From: Desulfosudis oleivorans Hxd3
GTDB taxonomy: Bacteria; Desulfobacterota; Desulfobacteria; Desulfobacterales; Desulfosudaceae
Assembly (NCBI RefSeq): GCF_000018405.1
Contig: NC_009943.1
Span: 353,255 to 385,254, forward strand
Direction: 5' to 3'
DNA length: 32,000 nt
The position numbers were made by a program, and so were the translations under genes. Under the pieces are notes generated by a model. That model did not search any database and was not told the DNA's origin. It saw nothing but the letters and a program-made list of their open reading frames with translations. Numbering within the stretch: the first letter of the stretch is position 1; every line of letters begins with the position of its first letter. This document shows, one piece after another, positions 3,379-20,778 of this stretch.

Positions 3379-5481
3379 ATGGCCATGGCAACCACAAAGG
3401 TTAAAACCATCTGTTTTGAGTGTCACTCCCGCTGCGGCCTGGTGCTTGAGGTGGAGGGCGGCCGGGTGACGGCCGTCCATGGAGACAAGGACCATCCTCA
3501 CAGCCACGGTTACAGTTGCCCCAAGGGCCGGGCCTGCATGGAGATCATCTACCACCCGGACCGGATCACCACGCCCCTGATCAAGGTGGGGGAACGGCAG
3601 GGAACGCGTTTTGAAAAGGCCTCCTGGGATGATGCCCTGGGCCTGGTCGCCGAGCGGCTGCTGGCAAGCCGGGAGCAGTGGGGGGCCGAGTCCGTGGTGT
3701 TCGGCTCCGGCACCACCCGGGGCATGGCGCCTTACATCAACCGGTTTCTGGCCCTGTTCGGGTCCCCCAACTTCATGGCCCCCTCCAACATGAGCGGCGG
3801 CCCCCTGGCCCTGGGCAGCGCCACCACCACCGGCTTCGGCCTGGTGGACCCGGATTACGCCAACACCCGGTGCATGCTGCTGTGGGCCCACAACCCGGAA
3901 AACTCCTGGCCCGGGCTCTACCTTTACGATATCAACCAGGGCCTGAAAAAAGGGGCCACGCTGATTGTGGTTGACCCCAGAGGCACCCGGTTTGCCAAAA
4001 AAGCCGATCACTGGCTGCGGCTGCGGCCCGGCACGGACGTGGCCCTGGTGCTCTCTTTTATTCACGTGATTATTGAAAACGGGCTTTACGACAAGGCTTT
4101 TGTGGAGCAGTGGACATCCGGGTTTGACCGGCTTCGGGAGTATGTGGCCGACTTTGCCCCGGAAAAGGTTGAATCCATCACCTGGGTGCCGGCCGGTCAG
4201 ATCAAAACTGCGGCCACGGTGTTTGCCACTGCCCGGCCGTCGGTGGTGGGACCGGGCATGGGCGGCGTGTGCCAGGCCAACGACGCCTTTGACCTGACCC
4301 GGGGCCTGACCATCCTGGCCGCCATCACCGGTAATCTGGAGGTGCCCGGCGGCAACCTCAACTGCACGCCGCCCACCCGCAAACGCAGCTGCTACGGTTC
4401 CGACTATGACGCGCCCAGAAACCTCCCCCCGGACCAGGCCGCCAAGAAGCTGGGCGCCGACACCTATCCCCTGTTCGGGCTGGTGCCCATTCCCTGCCCG
4501 CCCCAGGCGGTGTGGCCGGCCATCACAGACGGCAAACCCTATCCGGTCAGGGCCCTGGGCCTGTTTGCCAACAACAGCGTGTGCGCTTATCCCCATTCGG
4601 CCAGGGTACGCTCGGTGCTCCAGCGCCTGGACTTTCTTTTTTGCGTGGACTATTTTCACACCCCCACCACCGAGCTGGCCGATGTGATCCTGCCCCCGGC
4701 CCACTGGAGCGAGCGGGACGACGTGGAAGACCTGCTGATGAAAAACCATCTTTTCTGCCAGCCAAAGGCGGTGGAGCCGGTGCCGGAATGCCGGGATGAA
4801 AAGGAGATCCTCATCGGCCTGGCGCAAAAAATGGGGCTTACAGAATACTGGAAGTCGGTTACCGAAATTCTGGACTACCGGCTGGAGCCGGTGAGCATGA
4901 CCTTTGCGGAATTTAAGAAGACCGGTGTGTTCGCCAATCCCGTCGAATATAAGCGATACGAAAAGACCGGGCGGTTCCGGACCCCGTCGGGCAAGGTGGA
5001 GCTTTACGCTGAATACCTGACCGGGCTGGGCATCGCGCCCCTGCCGGTGTTCCGTGAGCCCGACGAAGGACCGGTCAGCCGGCCCGATCTTTACAGGGAA
5101 TATCCGCTGATCCTGACCACCGGGGGCCGCAATATCGTTTATTACCACTCCTCCCACCGGAACATTCCCTCCCTGCGAAAAAAGGCACCGGACCCGGAGC
5201 TTCAGATTCATCCGGACACGGCCGCCGACCTGGGGGTTTCCGAGGGGGAATGGGTTTATCTGGCCACGCCCCGGGCAAAGGTGGAAATTAAAATTCGCCT
5301 TTTTGCGGACATTGACCCCCGGGTGGTGCACGCACCCCACGGCTTCTGGTACGGGGTGGCGGATGGATGGCGCCGGCTCAACATCAACATGGTGACCAAT
5401 GACGAGCCCCTGTGCCCGGTGACCGCGTCGGTGCCCATAAAGTCCCTTTTGTGCCGGCTGGAAAAGATGGCGCCCCGATAG
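3379..5481 (+). CDS. Molybdopterin (bis-MGD) oxidoreductase, DMSO-reductase superfamily, cytoplasmic (no Tat signal)
   Basis: 700-aa ORF. N-terminal 4Fe-4S motif CFECHSRCG...YSCPKG (C-x2-C-x3-C...C). Length and layout match molybdopterin oxidoreductase plus a C-terminal MGD-binding barrel. AGAGGAG RBS. No twin-arginine leader. Confidence 0.9.
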   Translation: MAMATTKVKTICFECHSRCGLVLEVEGGRVTAVHGDKDHPHSHGYSCPKGRACMEIIYHPDRITTPLIKVGERQGTRFEKASWDDALGLVAERLLASREQWGAESVVFGSGTTRGMAPYINRFLALFGSPNFMAPSNMSGGPLALGSATTTGFGLVDPDYANTRCMLLWAHNPENSWPGLYLYDINQGLKKGATLIVVDPRGTRFAKKADHWLRLRPGTDVALVLSFIHVIIENGLYDKAFVEQWTSGFDRLREYVADFAPEKVESITWVPAGQIKTAATVFATARPSVVGPGMGGVCQANDAFDLTRGLTILAAITGNLEVPGGNLNCTPPTRKRSCYGSDYDAPRNLPPDQAAKKLGADTYPLFGLVPIPCPPQAVWPAITDGKPYPVRALGLFANNSVCAYPHSARVRSVLQRLDFLFCVDYFHTPTTELADVILPPAHWSERDDVEDLLMKNHLFCQPKAVEPVPECRDEKEILIGLAQKMGLTEYWKSVTEILDYRLEPVSMTFAEFKKTGVFANPVEYKRYEKTGRFRTPSGKVELYAEYLTGLGIAPLPVFREPDEGPVSRPDLYREYPLILTTGGRNIVYYHSSHRNIPSLRKKAPDPELQIHPDTAADLGVSEGEWVYLATPRAKVEIKIRLFADIDPRVVHAPHGFWYGVADGWRRLNINMVTNDEPLCPVTASVPIKSLLCRLEKMAPR

Positions 5482-5854: not shown

Positions 5855-5890
5855 CGATTTCGATCCCGATAGCGATCCCGATTTCGATTA
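5855..5890. repeat. Hexamer-periodic repeat tract (CGATNN)x6, locus A
   Basis: CGATTT CGATCC CGATAG CGATCC CGATTT CGATTA. Its reverse complement matches the tracts at 18605-18664 and 30958-30993. Confidence 0.9.
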
Positions 5891-5972: not shown

Positions 5973-7766
5973 TCAGTCCTTGGGATACATGGCGTCGATC
6001 TTTTCGGCAAACCGCTCCATAACCACGTTGCGCTTGATCTTGAAGGTGGGGGTGATCAGGCCGTTGTCAATGGTGAACTCCGGCACGATGGTCACCTTTT
6101 TGATGTTTTCAAACGAGGCAAAGGCCTTGTTCTTTTCCGCCACCTCGGTCTCGATCAGCTTGAGAATCTCGGGTTTCTGACCCAGGTCGTTGATGTCGGT
6201 AAAGGCAATGTTGTTGCTCTGTGCGTATTCAGCCACGGTTTCCGGGTCCATCACCACCAGCGCGGTCAGGTATTTTCGCCGGTCCCCGATCACCGTGACC
6301 TGGGCGATATACTTGGAGGTGGCGATCACCCCTTCGATGGCCGAAGGCGCGATGTTCTTGCCGCCGGCGGTGATGATCAGGTCCTTTTTCCGTCCGGTGA
6401 TCTGCAAAAATCCCTGGTCGTCGATCTCGCCCAGGTCGCCGGTGGATTGCCAGCCGTCCGGGGCAATGGTTTTGGCCGTCTCCTCGGGCATCTTGTAGTA
6501 CTCTTTCATGACGTTTCGGCCGCGAAACAGGACTTCTCCGTCTTCGGCGATCTTCTGCTCAATGCCGGGGCCGGGCTGGCCCACCCAGCCAAACCGGTAG
6601 TTGTCCACCCGGTTGACGTTGGTAAAGGAGGTGTTTTCACTCATGCCGAGGCCTTCCAGGATCAGCACATCGGCGGCATGAAAAAACTTGGCGATATCGG
6701 GGTTCAGCGGTGCGGCGCCGCTGATGCACCACCGTACCCGGCCGCCCAGGGCCGCCTGAAGCTTGGAGAACACCAGCTTGGTGGCGATCTTGTATTTAAA
6801 GGCCGTTCCCGCGGGAATGGGTTGTTTGTTGAGCCGGCGGTCACTGATCTCGTTGCCCACGGTGCAGGCCCACCGGAAAATTTTCAGGGCCAGGCCGCCC
6901 TTGGCTTCGGCGCCGCTGATCACCTTGGCGTAAACTTTTTCATAGATGCGGGGCACGCTGGCAAACCAGTCGGGCTCGGATGCCTTCAGGTCGTCCACCA
7001 GGGTGTCGATGCTGCGGGCAAAGGTGGTGCAGGTTCCGGTCAGCACGGAGAAGTAGACGCAGAGCCGGGCAAACACGTGGGCCAGGGGGAGAAACAGGAA
7101 GGTGTTGTCTCCTTCGTGAATATCGGCGCACTCCCTGGCTGACTGGGCCGTGAAGGTGAGGTTGTCGTGGGTCAGCACGGCGCCCTTGGGAACGCCGGTG
7201 GTGCCGGATGTGTAGACAATGGCGGCCGGGTCCGACGGGCCGGCCGCGTCAATGCGTTCCTTGAGTTTTTCGTCGGCCACATCCTTTCCCAGGGCCAGGA
7301 ACTCGTCAAAGCTGATGGCCCAGCCATCTCCGGTCCCCTTGCCTTTAAACAGGATCACCTTACGAATGTTGGGAATATCGGCCCGAATGGAGAGCAGCTT
7401 ATCGAGTTGTTTCTGGTCCTCGGCAAAGATCACCACCGCGTCCGAATGGTTGATGATGTATTTGCAGTCATGGGGCAGGTTGGACTGGTAGATGCCCACG
7501 GTGACCCCGTTGCAGGAGGCAATGGCCATGTCGCACAGCACCCACTGATAACAGGTGTAGCTGAGAATGTTGACCTTGTCCTGTTTGTTTACATCCAGGG
7601 CAATAAGGCTTTTGGCCGCCTGCCGGACCTGGTCGTAAAACCCGGCCCAGGTGATTGAGTCCGTCACACCGGCCTCACGGAACCACCGGTAGGCGGTCTG
7701 GTCGGCGCGGGCGTCAATCGTCTCCTTGAGCATTTCATGAATATTTTTATAATCCTTGATGGCCAT
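5973..7766 (-). CDS. Long-chain acyl-CoA synthetase / AMP-dependent ligase
   Basis: 597-aa ORF. AMP-binding signature IVYTSGTTGVPKGAVLTH, then DGWQSTGDLGEID and a C-terminal TPTFKIKR motif. GAAGGAGGG RBS. Confidence 0.92.
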   Translation of the reverse strand: MAIKDYKNIHEMLKETIDARADQTAYRWFREAGVTDSITWAGFYDQVRQAAKSLIALDVNKQDKVNILSYTCYQWVLCDMAIASCNGVTVGIYQSNLPHDCKYIINHSDAVVIFAEDQKQLDKLLSIRADIPNIRKVILFKGKGTGDGWAISFDEFLALGKDVADEKLKERIDAAGPSDPAAIVYTSGTTGVPKGAVLTHDNLTFTAQSARECADIHEGDNTFLFLPLAHVFARLCVYFSVLTGTCTTFARSIDTLVDDLKASEPDWFASVPRIYEKVYAKVISGAEAKGGLALKIFRWACTVGNEISDRRLNKQPIPAGTAFKYKIATKLVFSKLQAALGGRVRWCISGAAPLNPDIAKFFHAADVLILEGLGMSENTSFTNVNRVDNYRFGWVGQPGPGIEQKIAEDGEVLFRGRNVMKEYYKMPEETAKTIAPDGWQSTGDLGEIDDQGFLQITGRKKDLIITAGGKNIAPSAIEGVIATSKYIAQVTVIGDRRKYLTALVVMDPETVAEYAQSNNIAFTDINDLGQKPEILKLIETEVAEKNKAFASFENIKKVTIVPEFTIDNGLITPTFKIKRNVVMERFAEKIDAMYPKD

Positions 7767-18283: not shown

Positions 18284-18583
18284 TCAGCGCAGGGCCGTGC
18301 CCAGCACGTACTCCTCGTAGACCGTAGGCCCTTCCTGGTAGACATTGAGCATGACCTCGAATTCGTTGCGCCGGGGATTGTTTTTCCACCGGTGCCAGCT
18401 TTCCATGTCCTGCCAGGTGCCGATGACCACCAGCTTTCGGGGGTCATCGTTCTGCATCAGGGTCTCGCCGGACACATACCCCGGCTGGGACATGGCGGCA
18501 AACCGCAGGTCGTGAAGCAGGGCCAGAATCTCGTCTGTGGCCCCTTGTCTGAAACGGCGCTTGATGATGATTTTTGCCAGCAT
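18284..18583 (-). CDS. ABM (antibiotic-biosynthesis-monooxygenase/Dabb) fold small protein, 99 aa
   Basis: MLAKIIIKRRF...LVVIGTWQDMESWHRW... with GGAAAGGAGAG RBS. The 203-aa ORF-track version (to 18895) runs on into the hexamer repeat and the tandem array and is rejected. Confidence 0.7.
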   Translation of the reverse strand: MLAKIIIKRRFRQGATDEILALLHDLRFAAMSQPGYVSGETLMQNDDPRKLVVIGTWQDMESWHRWKNNPRRNEFEVMLNVYQEGPTVYEEYVLGTALR

Positions 18584-18604
18584 GATATTCTCTCCTTTCC
18601 ACGC

Positions 18605-18664
18605 ATCAAAATCGAAATCAAAATCGAAATCAAAATCGGGATCGCTATCGGTATCGGTATCGAA
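18605..18664. repeat. Hexamer-periodic repeat tract (ATCNNN)x10, locus B
   Basis: ATCAAA ATCGAA ATCAAA ATCGAA ATCAAA ATCGGG ATCGCT ATCGGT ATCGGT ATCGAA. Lies 22-81 nt upstream of the ABM start codon. Confidence 0.92.
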
Positions 18665-18775
18665 CCCGTGTGCGGTGAATTTTAATAGTGTTTCATATTT
18701 TACCAGACATGGTAGGCGGATGCCAGCAGCTACGGCCGGGTGGTTCCTTATGAATAAGAAGGCGGGAAAAGGCCT

Positions 18776-19794
18776 GTTTGTAGTGTGCCCGTAAGGGCAT
18801 CGCAATTGGACAGCCATAGAACGCCTGACGGCGTCACTACAAACCGGGGAAAGTGCGGAGCGAAGAAAATGTTTGTAGTGTGCCCGTAAGGGCATCGAAA
18901 CTGGACAGCCATAGAACGCCTGACGGCGTCACTACAAACCGGGGGATGTGCGGAGCGAAGAAACTGTTTGTAGTGTGCCCGTAAGGGCATCGCGATTGGA
19001 CAGCCGTAGAACGCCTGACGGCGTCACTACGAACCGGGGAAAGTGCGGAGCGAAGAAACTGTTTGTAGTGTGCCCGTAAGGGCATCGCGATTGGACAGCC
19101 GTAGAACGCCTGACGGCGTCACTACGAACCGGGGAAAGTGCGGAGCGAAGAAACTGTTTGTAGTGTGCCCGTAAGGGCATCGAAACTGGACAGCCGTAGA
19201 ACGCCTGACGGCGTCACTACAAACCGGGGAAAGTGCGGAGCGAAGAAACTGTTTGTAGTGTGCCCGTAAGGGCATCGAAACTGGACAGCCATAGAACGCC
19301 TGACGGCGTCACTACGAACCGGGGAAAGTGCGGAGCAAAGAAACTGTTTGTAGTGTGCCCGTAAGGGCATCGCAACTGGACAGCCAAAGAACGCCTGACG
19401 GCGTCACTACGAACCGGGGAAAGTGCGGAGCGAAGAAACTGTTTGTAGTGTGCCCGTAAGGGCATCGCGATTGGACAGCCGTAGAACGCCTGACGGCGTC
19501 ACTACAAACCGGGGAAAGTGCGGAGCGAAGAAAATGTTTGTAGTGTGCCCGTAAGGGCATCGAAACTGGACAGCCGTAGAACGCCTGACGGCGTCACTAC
19601 GAACCGGGGAAAGTGCGGAGCGAAGAAAATGTTTGTAGTGTGCCCGTAAGGGCATCGCAATTGGACAGCCATAGAACGCCTGACGGCGTCACTACGAACC
19701 GGGGGAGGTGCGGAGCGAAGAAACTGTTTGTAGTGTGCCCGTAAGGGCATCGCGATTGGACAGCCGTAGAACGCCTGACGGCGTCACTACAAAC
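18776..19794 (+). repeat. Tandem array: 10 full and 1 truncated copies of a 95-bp unit (69-nt multi-stem hairpin plus 26-nt purine-rich linker). Candidate structured-RNA array; strand assignment is tentative
   Basis: Units start at 18776, 18871, 18966, 19061, 19156, 19251, 19346, 19441, 19536, 19631 and 19726. 85 of 95 positions are invariant. GTTTGTAGTG pairs with CACTAC(A/G)AAC. Inner hairpins are TGCCC-GTAA-GGGCA and ACGCC-TGAC-GGCGT. The + strand has stops in all frames. Confidence 0.95.
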
Positions 19795-19878
19795 ACATTG
19801 AATTACAGGACCATAGCTGTTAGGCTGGCACAAAAAAAGCCCTGTTTTATATAACTGATAGACAATAAAGGATAAACC

Positions 19879-20778
19879 ATGCGAATTGTGACGCGCCCGG
19901 ACTTTGACGGCATTGTGTGCGCGGTCCTGCTTTACGATGTGGCCGACATCACGGCGCCCATTGCCTGGGTGGAGCCCAGCCAGATTCAGAAAAACGAGGT
20001 GAGCATCAAAAAAGGCGACATTCTCGCCAACCTGCCGTTTCATGAGAATTGTTCCCTCTGGTTCGACCACCACCACTCCAACCGGGTGGATGTTCCCTTT
20101 GAAGGGCTTTTCCGGGTGGCGCCGTCCGCCGCCGGGCTGGTGTATGAGTATTACAAAGAGAGGCTGAGCCGGGACTTTTCCGAACTGGTGGCCCAGGCCG
20201 ACAAGATTGATGCCGCGGACTTGTCCGCGGATGAGGTGGCCCGGCCCGAAGATCACCCCTATATCCTGCTCTCCATGACCATTGTCAACCACGACTGGTC
20301 TGAAGCGCCCTACTGGAACCTGCTGGTGGATCTGCTGGGCCGTCTGCCCATTGACCGGGTGATGGCCCATGACGCGGTCCAGGCCCGGTGCCGGCAGACC
20401 ATTGAAGACAACCGGAACCTGGCAGCCCACCTTAAAAAACACACCACCCTTTACGGCCACGTGGCGGTCACCGACTTTCGGGCCTTGGACGTTGCACCCA
20501 CGGGTAACCGGTTTCTGGCCTATTCGCTTTTTCCCGAAGCCGTGGTCAGCGTAAAAATTCGCCATCCGGCCGAAGACCGAAGCCGGGTCATTGTCAGCGT
20601 GGGCCACAGCATCTTCAACCGGGGGTGCAATGTCAACGTGGGGGAGATGCTTTCTCAATTTGAGGGCGGGGGCCACCGCGGGGCCGGGGCCTGCACCTTT
20701 TTGGCAGACAAAGCCGACGACTATATTCCCAGAATCATCGACGTCCTGGTAAAAAACGAGGAAAACGACACTGCGTGA
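19879..20778 (+). CDS. DHH/DHHA1-family phosphoesterase (NrnA/exopolyphosphatase-related)
   Basis: 299 aa. DFDG (motif I), WFDHHHSN (DHH motif) and a C-terminal FEGGGHRGAGA (GGGH of DHHA1). AAGGAT RBS. Confidence 0.85.
   Translation: MRIVTRPDFDGIVCAVLLYDVADITAPIAWVEPSQIQKNEVSIKKGDILANLPFHENCSLWFDHHHSNRVDVPFEGLFRVAPSAAGLVYEYYKERLSRDFSELVAQADKIDAADLSADEVARPEDHPYILLSMTIVNHDWSEAPYWNLLVDLLGRLPIDRVMAHDAVQARCRQTIEDNRNLAAHLKKHTTLYGHVAVTDFRALDVAPTGNRFLAYSLFPEAVVSVKIRHPAEDRSRVIVSVGHSIFNRGCNVNVGEMLSQFEGGGHRGAGACTFLADKADDYIPRIIDVLVKNEENDTA

Follow-up and report, generated by a model that had tools for sequence, protein, structure and literature searches.

A tandem array of REP doublets in Desulfosudis oleivorans Hxd3, very probably a BIME-like cluster of a RAYT-associated family

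The stretch of Desulfosudis (formerly Desulfococcus) oleivorans Hxd3 DNA analysed here (contig NC_009943.1, positions 353,255 to 385,254 of the forward strand; 32,000 nucleotides, hereafter called the window) contains a 1-kb array in which a unit of 95 base pairs (bp) is repeated head to tail. With a rough probability of 0.88, this array is a tandem cluster, comparable to a bacterial interspersed mosaic element (BIME), of GTAG-type repetitive extragenic palindromic (REP) doublets, also called REPINs (REP doublets forming hairpins), and belongs to a family associated with genes for REP-associated tyrosine transposases (RAYTs). This reading is carried by the relationship of the repeated module to a dispersed family, by the association of that family with RAYT genes, by the homology of the whole unit to units that flank a RAYT gene, and by copy-number variation at the site. 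The initial annotation had described the array as structured RNAs that could not be assigned to a known family; the module is instead a GTAG-type REP doublet, and the analysis lends no support to a new structured-RNA family. Three readings had been offered, namely processed small RNAs (sRNAs), a protein-sponge RNA and a BIME-like cluster of extragenic palindromes. Only the last one is retained, because the doublets occur as solitary copies in other genomes and in close relatives, and because of the RAYT association.

GTAG-type REPs are imperfect palindromes of 20-40 nucleotides (nt) with an unpaired GTAG at the 5' foot (PMC3333891, PMC3733652). Bacterial repeats of this kind were recognised decades ago. 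As published hallmarks, GTAG REPs, REPINs and REPtrons have an unpaired GTAG on the 5' side of a short palindrome, dimers in head-to-head arrangement, and inverted REPs on both sides of a rayt gene (PMC2817692, PMC3333891, PMC3733652, PMC3116915). Furthermore, rayt genes with inverted REPs or BIMEs on their flanks have been described (PMC2817692).

Tandem Repeats Finder (TRF) places the array at 18774-19794, with a period of 95, 10.7 copies, 95% matches, 0% indels and a score of 1818. TRF and a table of the units agree with the initial annotation on the head-to-tail arrangement, on the start of each unit and on the eleventh copy, which ends at 19794 together with the end of the module. Two sub-motifs, a 23-mer and a 22-mer, have 11 exact occurrences each, all on the + strand and spaced 95 nt apart, where none is expected (100 shuffles). 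In window coordinates, the array is built up as follows.

18776..19794, no strand assigned: entire array with a period of 95, made up of 11 REP doublets and ten 26-nt linkers (TRF, REP-unit scan and unit table)
18776..18844, + strand: REP doublet 1, followed by a linker at 18845-18870
18776-18799: left REP of doublet 1, GTTTGTAGTG + TGCCC-GTAA-GGGCA
18800-18820: spacer of doublet 1, 21 nt
18821-18844: inverted right REP of doublet 1, ACGCC-TGAC-GGCGT + CACTACAAAC
18871..18939, + strand: REP doublet 2, followed by a linker at 18940-18965
18966..19034, + strand: REP doublet 3, followed by a linker at 19035-19060
19061..19129, + strand: REP doublet 4, followed by a linker at 19130-19155
19156..19224, + strand: REP doublet 5, followed by a linker at 19225-19250
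19251..19319, + strand: REP doublet 6, followed by a linker at 19320-19345
19346..19414, + strand: REP doublet 7, followed by a linker at 19415-19440
19441..19509, + strand: REP doublet 8, followed by a linker at 19510-19535
19536..19604, + strand: REP doublet 9, followed by a linker at 19605-19630
19631..19699, + strand: REP doublet 10, followed by a linker at 19700-19725
19726..19794, + strand: REP doublet 11, the last one, without linker; right junction CAAAC/acattgaattacagg (the slash marks the junction)

Each 69-nt module consists of two inverted 24-nt REP units, made up of GTTYGTAGTG and a hairpin with a 5-bp stem and a 4-nt loop, on either side of a 21-nt spacer. The module consensus in the window is a left REP GTTTGTAGTG-TGCCCGTAAGGGCA, the 21-nt spacer and an inverted right REP ACGCCTGACGGCGT-CACTACRAAC. 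The same layout, GTAG followed by TG and by a 5-bp stem, a 4-nt loop and the second stem strand of 5 bp, and reaching 24 nt with the GTTY prefix, is found in 22 of the 22 REP units. These alternate strictly in orientation ('+-' x11 in the REP-unit scan), and the gaps between them alternate between 21 and 26 nt. The 10-bp helix that closes the module is the pairing of the two inverted 10-nt heads bearing GTAG/CTAC, and its two internal hairpins are the two REP palindromes. At its left end the array begins at the junction ...aaaaggcct/GTTTG.

The linkers between the doublets are near-identical. Variation affects 10 of the 95 columns of the unit (28, 29, 31, 41, 42, 66, 75, 77, 87 and 94), with a mean pairwise identity of 95.5%, and it spares the REP cores, where 1 of 48 columns varies as against 9 of 47 spacer and linker columns (Fisher p = 0.008). 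The similarity between units does not drop with their distance along the array, which fits a mosaic of converted copies. Stop codons occur in all six frames of the array (13-16 per + frame, 6-8 per - frame), in accordance with the noncoding character that was first assigned to it.

The REPs of the array are members of a widespread family. At least 120 genome loci contain an exact match to the 20-mer of the left REP, GTAGTGTGCCCGTAAGGGCA. Among the matches listed, the record titles add up to about 50 assemblies, mostly metagenome-assembled genomes (MAGs) of Planctomycetota (Phycisphaerae, Sedimentisphaerales, Pirellulales, Brocadiia), with Lentisphaerota, Verrucomicrobiota, Omnitrophota, Desulfobacteraceae and Thermodesulfobacteriota as further host labels. 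Within this same set most copies are solitary doublets, an inverted CACTACRARC head lies at most 180 nt away in 85 of the 121 evaluable left REPs, the median module length is 67 nt as compared to the window's 69 nt, and the right hairpins found most often, ACGCC-TNAC-GGCGT, are the same as in the window. From the aligned flanks, the canonical element reads GTTYGTAGTG-TGCCCGTAAGGGCA-variable spacer-ACGCCTNACGGCGT-CACTACRAAC, and at its right end a second unit of GTTYGTAGTG plus 5-bp stem and 4-nt loop is present as the reverse complement. In the right hairpin both sides change in four of the five pairs and 92.1% of the cells are paired; the covariation score is 0.318 versus 0.139 in shuffled alignments, none of 500 shuffles reaching as high. 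The spacer between the hairpins can be as short as a few nt or exceed 130 nt, and its sequences in different copies are unrelated, so that the central GG-ACAG-CC stem and the cloverleaf outline initially drawn for the module are not features of the family.

Several genomes contain multiple copies, with at least six loci each in the Sedimentisphaerales chromosome OY970194.1 and in Desulfobacteraceae UBA4064. Solitary doublets are also present in close relatives of Hxd3 (locus L127, and positions 450-517 of locus L134; L numbers designate loci fetched from other genomes). A metagenome scan for a doublet end followed by a doublet start yielded mainly tail-to-tail REP dimers instead of long arrays. 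The initial annotation had regarded solitary intergenic copies as the mark of an ordinary REP or BIME. Solitary copies do occur, in many other genomes and in close relatives; crude open reading frame (ORF) calls, which are unreliable in high-GC MAGs, overlapped 39 of 85 doublet copies.

The 20-mer is also matched exactly in three IMG/VR phage contigs. In the first (L001), family doublets at 6312-6380 and 7482-7549, both in sense orientation, bracket a major head protein gene (6481-7473, phrog_1005); further doublets lie at 9241 in L002 and at 812-831 on the - strand of L003. The right hairpin of these phage-contig doublets has another sequence (CCCCGATGTACATCGGGG) and is still a hairpin. REPINs within phage structural operons seem to be unusual. 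In another set of loci the left REP forms part of a conserved repeat of another kind, aaacggc...gccGTTY-GTAGTGTGCCCGTAAGGGCA-TTC...GCCATAWTGAGAAYTGCTG, which lacks the usual inverted right REP and has no Rfam match (L012, L014, L030, L040, L059, L063, L076 and L109, from the MAG 'bacterium ELA687' and others, as well as L028, L033, L058, L070, L094 and L107). This may be a composite of a REP and a terminal inverted repeat element, or something else. The doublets of Desulfobacteraceae UBA4064 (L008, L017, L049, L053, L086, L113) have conserved flanks outside the REPs, with gcattcggNggaatgcttNcctct to the left and AGGCCTGA... to the right, and the unit that is mobile or has been duplicated in this organism appears to extend beyond the doublet.

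RAYT genes flanked by REPs of this family are found at five loci: L037, L062, L098, L126, which is from a Thermodesulfobacteriota MAG, and L134. NCBIfam model NF047646 (REP-associated tyrosine transposase, cut-off 80 bits) scores three of the products above its cut-off (L037, 90.9 bits; L126, 84.9; L134, 87.0) and two below it (L062, 70.0; L098, 74.2). The L037 gene, a 204-aa ORF between two clusters of REP units, encodes an HUH motif (LPNHYHLL) and a YIHANPV motif, and is missed by Pfam and recognised by NCBIfam. The RAYTs associated with the family are 53-82% identical, while the 20-nt REP core is identical; RAYT homologues number roughly 1,900. Hxd3 itself encodes a RAYT, ABW67588 / WP_012175204, which is present in the same 3,944,167-bp record as the window, is named REP-associated tyrosine transposase by NCBI, reaches 84.9 bits with NF047646 and has a match to the E. 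coli TnpA-REP structure 4ER8 with E = 8.8e-8. Its gene lies away from the window; the difference between the protein accessions suggests a distance of about 1,450 genes from the array locus. A tblastn search detected no RAYT homologue in the window, and a scan of 30 window ORFs against Pfam detected no cas, transposase, reverse-transcriptase, integrase or ToxN-like domains, which bears out what the initial annotation had stated on the RAYT, cas, reverse transcriptase and transposase genes.

The RAYT of L134 belongs to the same 90%-identity cluster as that of Hxd3, and its gene is preceded by two and followed by four tandem doublets with a period of about 92 nt. In these flanking units, both the spacer TCGCACCCGGCCAGCCGGAGA and the linker ..GGAGTGCGGAGCG.. 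align with those of the window unit. The window array is therefore a second locus of the same amplified unit, composed of a REP, a spacer, an inverted REP and a linker. Upstream of RAYT genes of the Desulfosudis type, two tandem doublets are found in L134 and L136 and three in L135; RAYT-flanking arrays therefore vary in copy number, or else in assembly completeness. Left REPs alone, repeated head to tail beside a RAYT gene, are observed in L126 (2540-2880, period 46 nt, with an assembly gap inside) and L098 (6271-6360, period 31 nt). These clusters differ from the window array, in which the orientation alternates.

Close relatives were found by means of proteins that share a 90%-identity cluster with the 299-aa protein encoded to the right of the array, and they provide a view of the orthologous site. 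In L127 and L128 the gene order (GGDEF, ABM, intergenic region, 299-aa gene) is retained, and a single doublet is located at exactly the left junction of the window array (...aaaaggcct/GTTTG). L133 contains four tandem units with the linker and the right junction of the window. The copy number at this site is thus 1 (L127/L128), 4 (L133) or 11 (window), and this series, combined with the high identity within the locus, matches the behaviour of E. coli BIME-2. Short-read assemblies of the same strain, with an identical protein, break inside the last doublet. L129 and L130 have no visible REP, and an insertion sequence (IS) element has entered about 40 nt upstream of their 299-aa gene; a DDE_3 transposase IS (304-1092 in L129, 1-120 in L130) stands where Hxd3 has the region with the REP array. 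REPs are known as targets of IS elements.

A possible course of events can be drawn from these observations. One doublet would have been present at the site, as is still the case in a relative, and the unit of doublet plus linker would then have been amplified in tandem, to four and subsequently to 11 copies. The REPs of this family are the cognate sequences of a RAYT (TnpA-REP, a Y1 HUH nuclease), which is predicted to mobilise or replicate them. Amplification may have occurred through RAYT cleavage and strand transfer on single-stranded DNA (the Ton-Hoang model), as proposed for E. coli BIME-2, or through ordinary events between repeats, namely unequal recombination or slippage. The 95% similarity of the copies would thereafter be maintained by gene conversion. 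TnpA-REP strand transfer can assemble tandem BIMEs, and in BIME-2 the tandem copies are alike within a locus and differ in number between strains (PMC3333891).

Several points weigh against the assignment to a BIME-like REP cluster. Within the 32-kb window, these REPs occur in the array alone, and the evidence for dispersed copies comes from other genomes and from close relatives. With its 22 REPs, the array exceeds every cluster in the 256 fetched loci, although short-read assemblies collapse such arrays. The copy counts of one and four in the relatives are from short-read metagenome assemblies and represent lower bounds. The REP flanks of Hxd3's own ABW67588 gene are deduced from L134, which encodes a RAYT of the same 90%-identity cluster. 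Finally, the array is flanked by divergently transcribed genes, a placement that differs from that in E. coli, where REPs are mostly located at the 3' ends of genes.

The fold on which the initial annotation was founded is confirmed for the isolated 69-nt module, which on the + strand reaches -28.8 kcal/mol (z = -3.39) with the structure as first described. It does not hold in the context of the 95-nt unit, where the minimum-energy fold loses the 10-bp closing helix (z = -1.17). The strong + strand fold of the module is one argument for an array that would be transcribed and would work as a putative RNA, either as processed sRNAs of 69-95 nt or as a CsrB-like sponge of about 1 kb acting through its GGAG/GGGGA linkers, but the - strand fold is nearly as good (-24.8 kcal/mol, z = -2.43), because the module is palindromic. 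Such an RNA role is also favoured by the right hairpin, in which family-wide G.T wobbles on the + strand exceed A.C mismatches by 9 to 2, and G.T pairs in REP stems have been noted by Di Nocera et al., who suggested that many REPs are transcribed (PMC3733652). G.T wobble is, however, equally tolerated in folded single-stranded DNA, the substrate of the RAYT. Column 66 of the unit, opposite U4, has an A/G polymorphism that coincides with the Y/R polymorphism of the heads throughout the family (GTTY...RAAC) and for this reason was given little weight as RNA-specific wobble evidence.

The linker core GTGCGGAGC, which does not vary between the units of the window, those of L133 and those that flank the RAYT gene of L134, could likewise point to an RNA role. 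The GGA motifs, however, are situated in the linker (GGGGAAAG, GCGGAGCG), outside the GUAA and UGAC hairpin loops, and a consensus scan found neither promoter-like nor terminator-like sites inside 18776-19794 on either strand. Rfam 15 contains no family that matches any part of the window at the gathering score; a search of 18500-20000 at E values up to 10 gave two chance-level matches alone (E = 4.8 and 9.9), and the related loci gave nothing but one tRNA elsewhere. The module is moreover a dispersed repeat, found in many phyla with a highly variable spacer, and its copy number at the site is 1, 4 or 11 among close relatives. In relation to neighbouring ORFs the doublets have no orientation bias, 14 being co-directional and 10 anti-directional in a crude test with greedy ORF calls that are unreliable in high-GC MAGs. 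Taken together, a function as processed sRNAs or as a sponge is very unlikely.

Likeness to NsiR1-type tandem sRNA arrays and to CsrB-type sponges is limited to the repetition of short hairpin units and to purine-rich segments that bear GGA. In contrast to NsiR1-type arrays, the window units are devoid of promoters and terminators of their own (consensus scan); in contrast to CsrB/RsmZ-type sponges, their GGA motifs are outside the hairpin loops; and in contrast to both, the unit is a dispersed mobile-DNA repeat without Rfam match. A tRNA-like 'cloverleaf' was ruled out, ARAGORN having found neither a tRNA nor a tmRNA. A self-cleaving ribozyme, a put-type antiterminator RNA, an RNase III-type site and the 5' end of a group II intron (GUGYG...) were considered as well and dropped, because the ends of the module are inverted 24-nt GTAG units and RAYT genes are present between clusters of them.

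The regularity of the array might also bring to mind other repeat systems in disguise, such as a CRISPR-like array (short palindromic repeats that are clustered and regularly interspaced), a ToxI-like type III toxin-antitoxin array or a run of integron attC sites. It shares with these its regular head-to-tail repeats with palindromic cores beside a gene of unknown function, and the GTT.../...AAC ends of the module are superficially attC-like. Nevertheless, the linkers are near-identical instead of being unique spacers, the Pfam scan of 30 ORFs detected neither a cas nor an integrase or ToxN-like domain, and the unit is also found as solitary copies and on the flanks of RAYT genes. The module ends also do not fit the attC cores, RYYYAAC/GTTRRRY. 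The probability of any such system is negligible, and the identical linkers and the RAYT association refute it.

Most likely, a BIME-like REP cluster such as this one has no function dedicated to the locus, and any effects on DNA topology, protein binding or the stability of read-through transcripts would be generic ones of REPs and BIMEs. The array is located in a divergent intergenic region of 1.3 kb, between the following features.

18284..18583, - strand: ABM-domain protein of 99 aa (WP_052294229; Pfam ABM match and exact-sequence look-up), transcribed away from the array
18584..18895, - strand: 5' extension of the ABM ORF, probably spurious, with an ATG at 18895 within the array
19879..20778, + strand: 'exopolyphosphatase-related' protein of 299 aa (ABW66137 / WP_012173756), transcribed away from the array

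The 299-aa protein has no match in Pfam or NCBIfam. The other ORFs among the 30 scanned against Pfam belong to housekeeping families (Rnf, molybdopterin oxidoreductase, TatD, pilMNOPQ) or match nothing. Exact-sequence look-ups of window proteins led to Hxd3 through ABW66136 and WP_052294229 (ABM protein), ABW66137 and ABW66139 (PilQ). A TGGCAC-N7-GC sequence at 19826-19841 has the sigma-54 -24/-12 spacing (GG-N10-GC) and is positioned 31 nt past the array and 38 nt before the ATG of the 299-aa gene. It is kept in L133, and is a weak candidate for a sigma-54 promoter.

It could be imagined that the REP array has been co-opted at the DNA level, as a putative platform for proteins (gyrase, IHF, nucleoid proteins), as a supercoiling insulator, or as a spacer that alters a promoter. 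Its position in the divergent region, with its end 84 nt upstream of the 299-aa start codon and 31 nt before the sequence with sigma-54-like spacing, would be in accordance with such a role, and for E. coli REPs and BIMEs, binding of IHF, Pol I and gyrase as well as topological insulation have been reported (PMC3333891). The copy number is, however, not conserved (1, 4, 11), in one relative an IS element substitutes the whole upstream region, and the GC of the putative sigma-54 -12 element is changed to GA in L127. Co-option of this kind is unlikely. Also unlikely is a cluster that is putatively transcribed, for example as a long leader of the 299-aa gene or on its own, and in which 11 identical three-helix modules and conserved GUGCGGAGC linkers would make up a multivalent RNA or DNA platform for a cellular protein.

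When compared to characterized REP systems, the array is most reminiscent of E. coli BIME-2 (Y-S-Z2 pairs with s/l/r linkers). In both, two REP types alternate in orientation and are separated by two alternating classes of linker (PMC3333891, PMC2817692), the tandem units at a locus are highly similar and variable in number between strains, and an unpaired GTAG head precedes the hairpin. The E. coli REPtron, with yafM/tnpA-REP within BIME-2, is another parallel, a cognate RAYT gene being flanked by tandem units. There are also differences. The window sequence is unrelated to the Y and Z2 REP types, and the array is therefore filed as BIME-like and not as a member of the enterobacterial BIME-2. 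Its stems, of 5 bp with 4-nt loops, are shorter and are separated from GTAG by an extra TG, the conserved head of the family is 10 nt long (GTTYGTAGTG), so that the heads of a doublet can pair, and its one cluster holds 22 REPs.

The REPINs of Pseudomonas fluorescens SBW25 (Bertels and Rainey; PMC3116915, PMC3337134) similarly consist of inverted REPs with a short spacer, are dispersed as a unit, and have a RAYT that is flanked by the same REPs. With the GTAG REP super-family (Di Nocera et al. 2013, PMC3733652) the array shares the GTAG tag and the head-to-head dimers as the main arrangement; furthermore, that super-family includes clusters of dimers reiterated in tandem together with a piece of flanking DNA, and is present in Planctomycetes and deltaproteobacteria. 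Its families nearest to the present one have extra bases between GTAG and the stem, and 5-bp stems. D. oleivorans is not in the genome list of that paper (PMC3733652), and the window REP sequence appears in neither its text nor its supplements, the consensuses of its 24 families being given only in a figure. Among the papers searched, none pairs 'Desulfococcus oleovorans' with 'RAYT'.

As a REP cluster, the array is mildly unusual in its paired 10-nt heads, in its size of 22 REPs, in its position between divergent genes, and in a core that is identical across phyla and phages despite divergent RAYTs. The value of explaining a striking 1-kb array that resembled a new RNA family is mainly one of clean-up. 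For the REPIN-RAYT field, there is in addition a REP family with a 10-nt head, 5-bp stems and an identical core in MAGs of several phyla, which is also present in phage structural-gene clusters. The series of 1, 4 and 11 copies in Desulfosudis relatives, together with the homologous units flanking a RAYT gene, could exemplify the growth of BIME-type arrays. REPIN-RAYT systems are described as mainly vertically inherited in the abstract of the RAREFAN preprint (10.1101/2022.05.22.493013). Unlike systems fitting that description, the present family has an identical 20-nt core in MAGs of several phyla and in phages, with RAYTs that are 53-82% identical. This core could mark a horizontally spreading RAYT/REPIN system; such spread, if true, would be at odds with the view of mostly vertical inheritance.

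Some minor observations concern the left flank of the array. GenBank ABW66136 is 203 aa long, the same length as the window ORF 18284-18895 on the - strand, while the ABM gene encodes 99 aa in RefSeq (WP_052294229) and in the gene calls of the relatives. Very probably, the 203-aa form is an artefact that stems from the repeat. On the - strand of the array, 82-aa ORFs form a ladder. Ten consecutive ATCNNN hexamers are found immediately upstream of the ABM gene, at 18605-18664 (18605-18638 according to TRF); read on the - strand, they are GAT (Asp) codons that share the frame of the ABM start codon (18583). L127 has a comparable GATNNN run close to its single doublet (about 3795-3830), and TRF reports a 12-nt repeat at 5855-5888 of the window.

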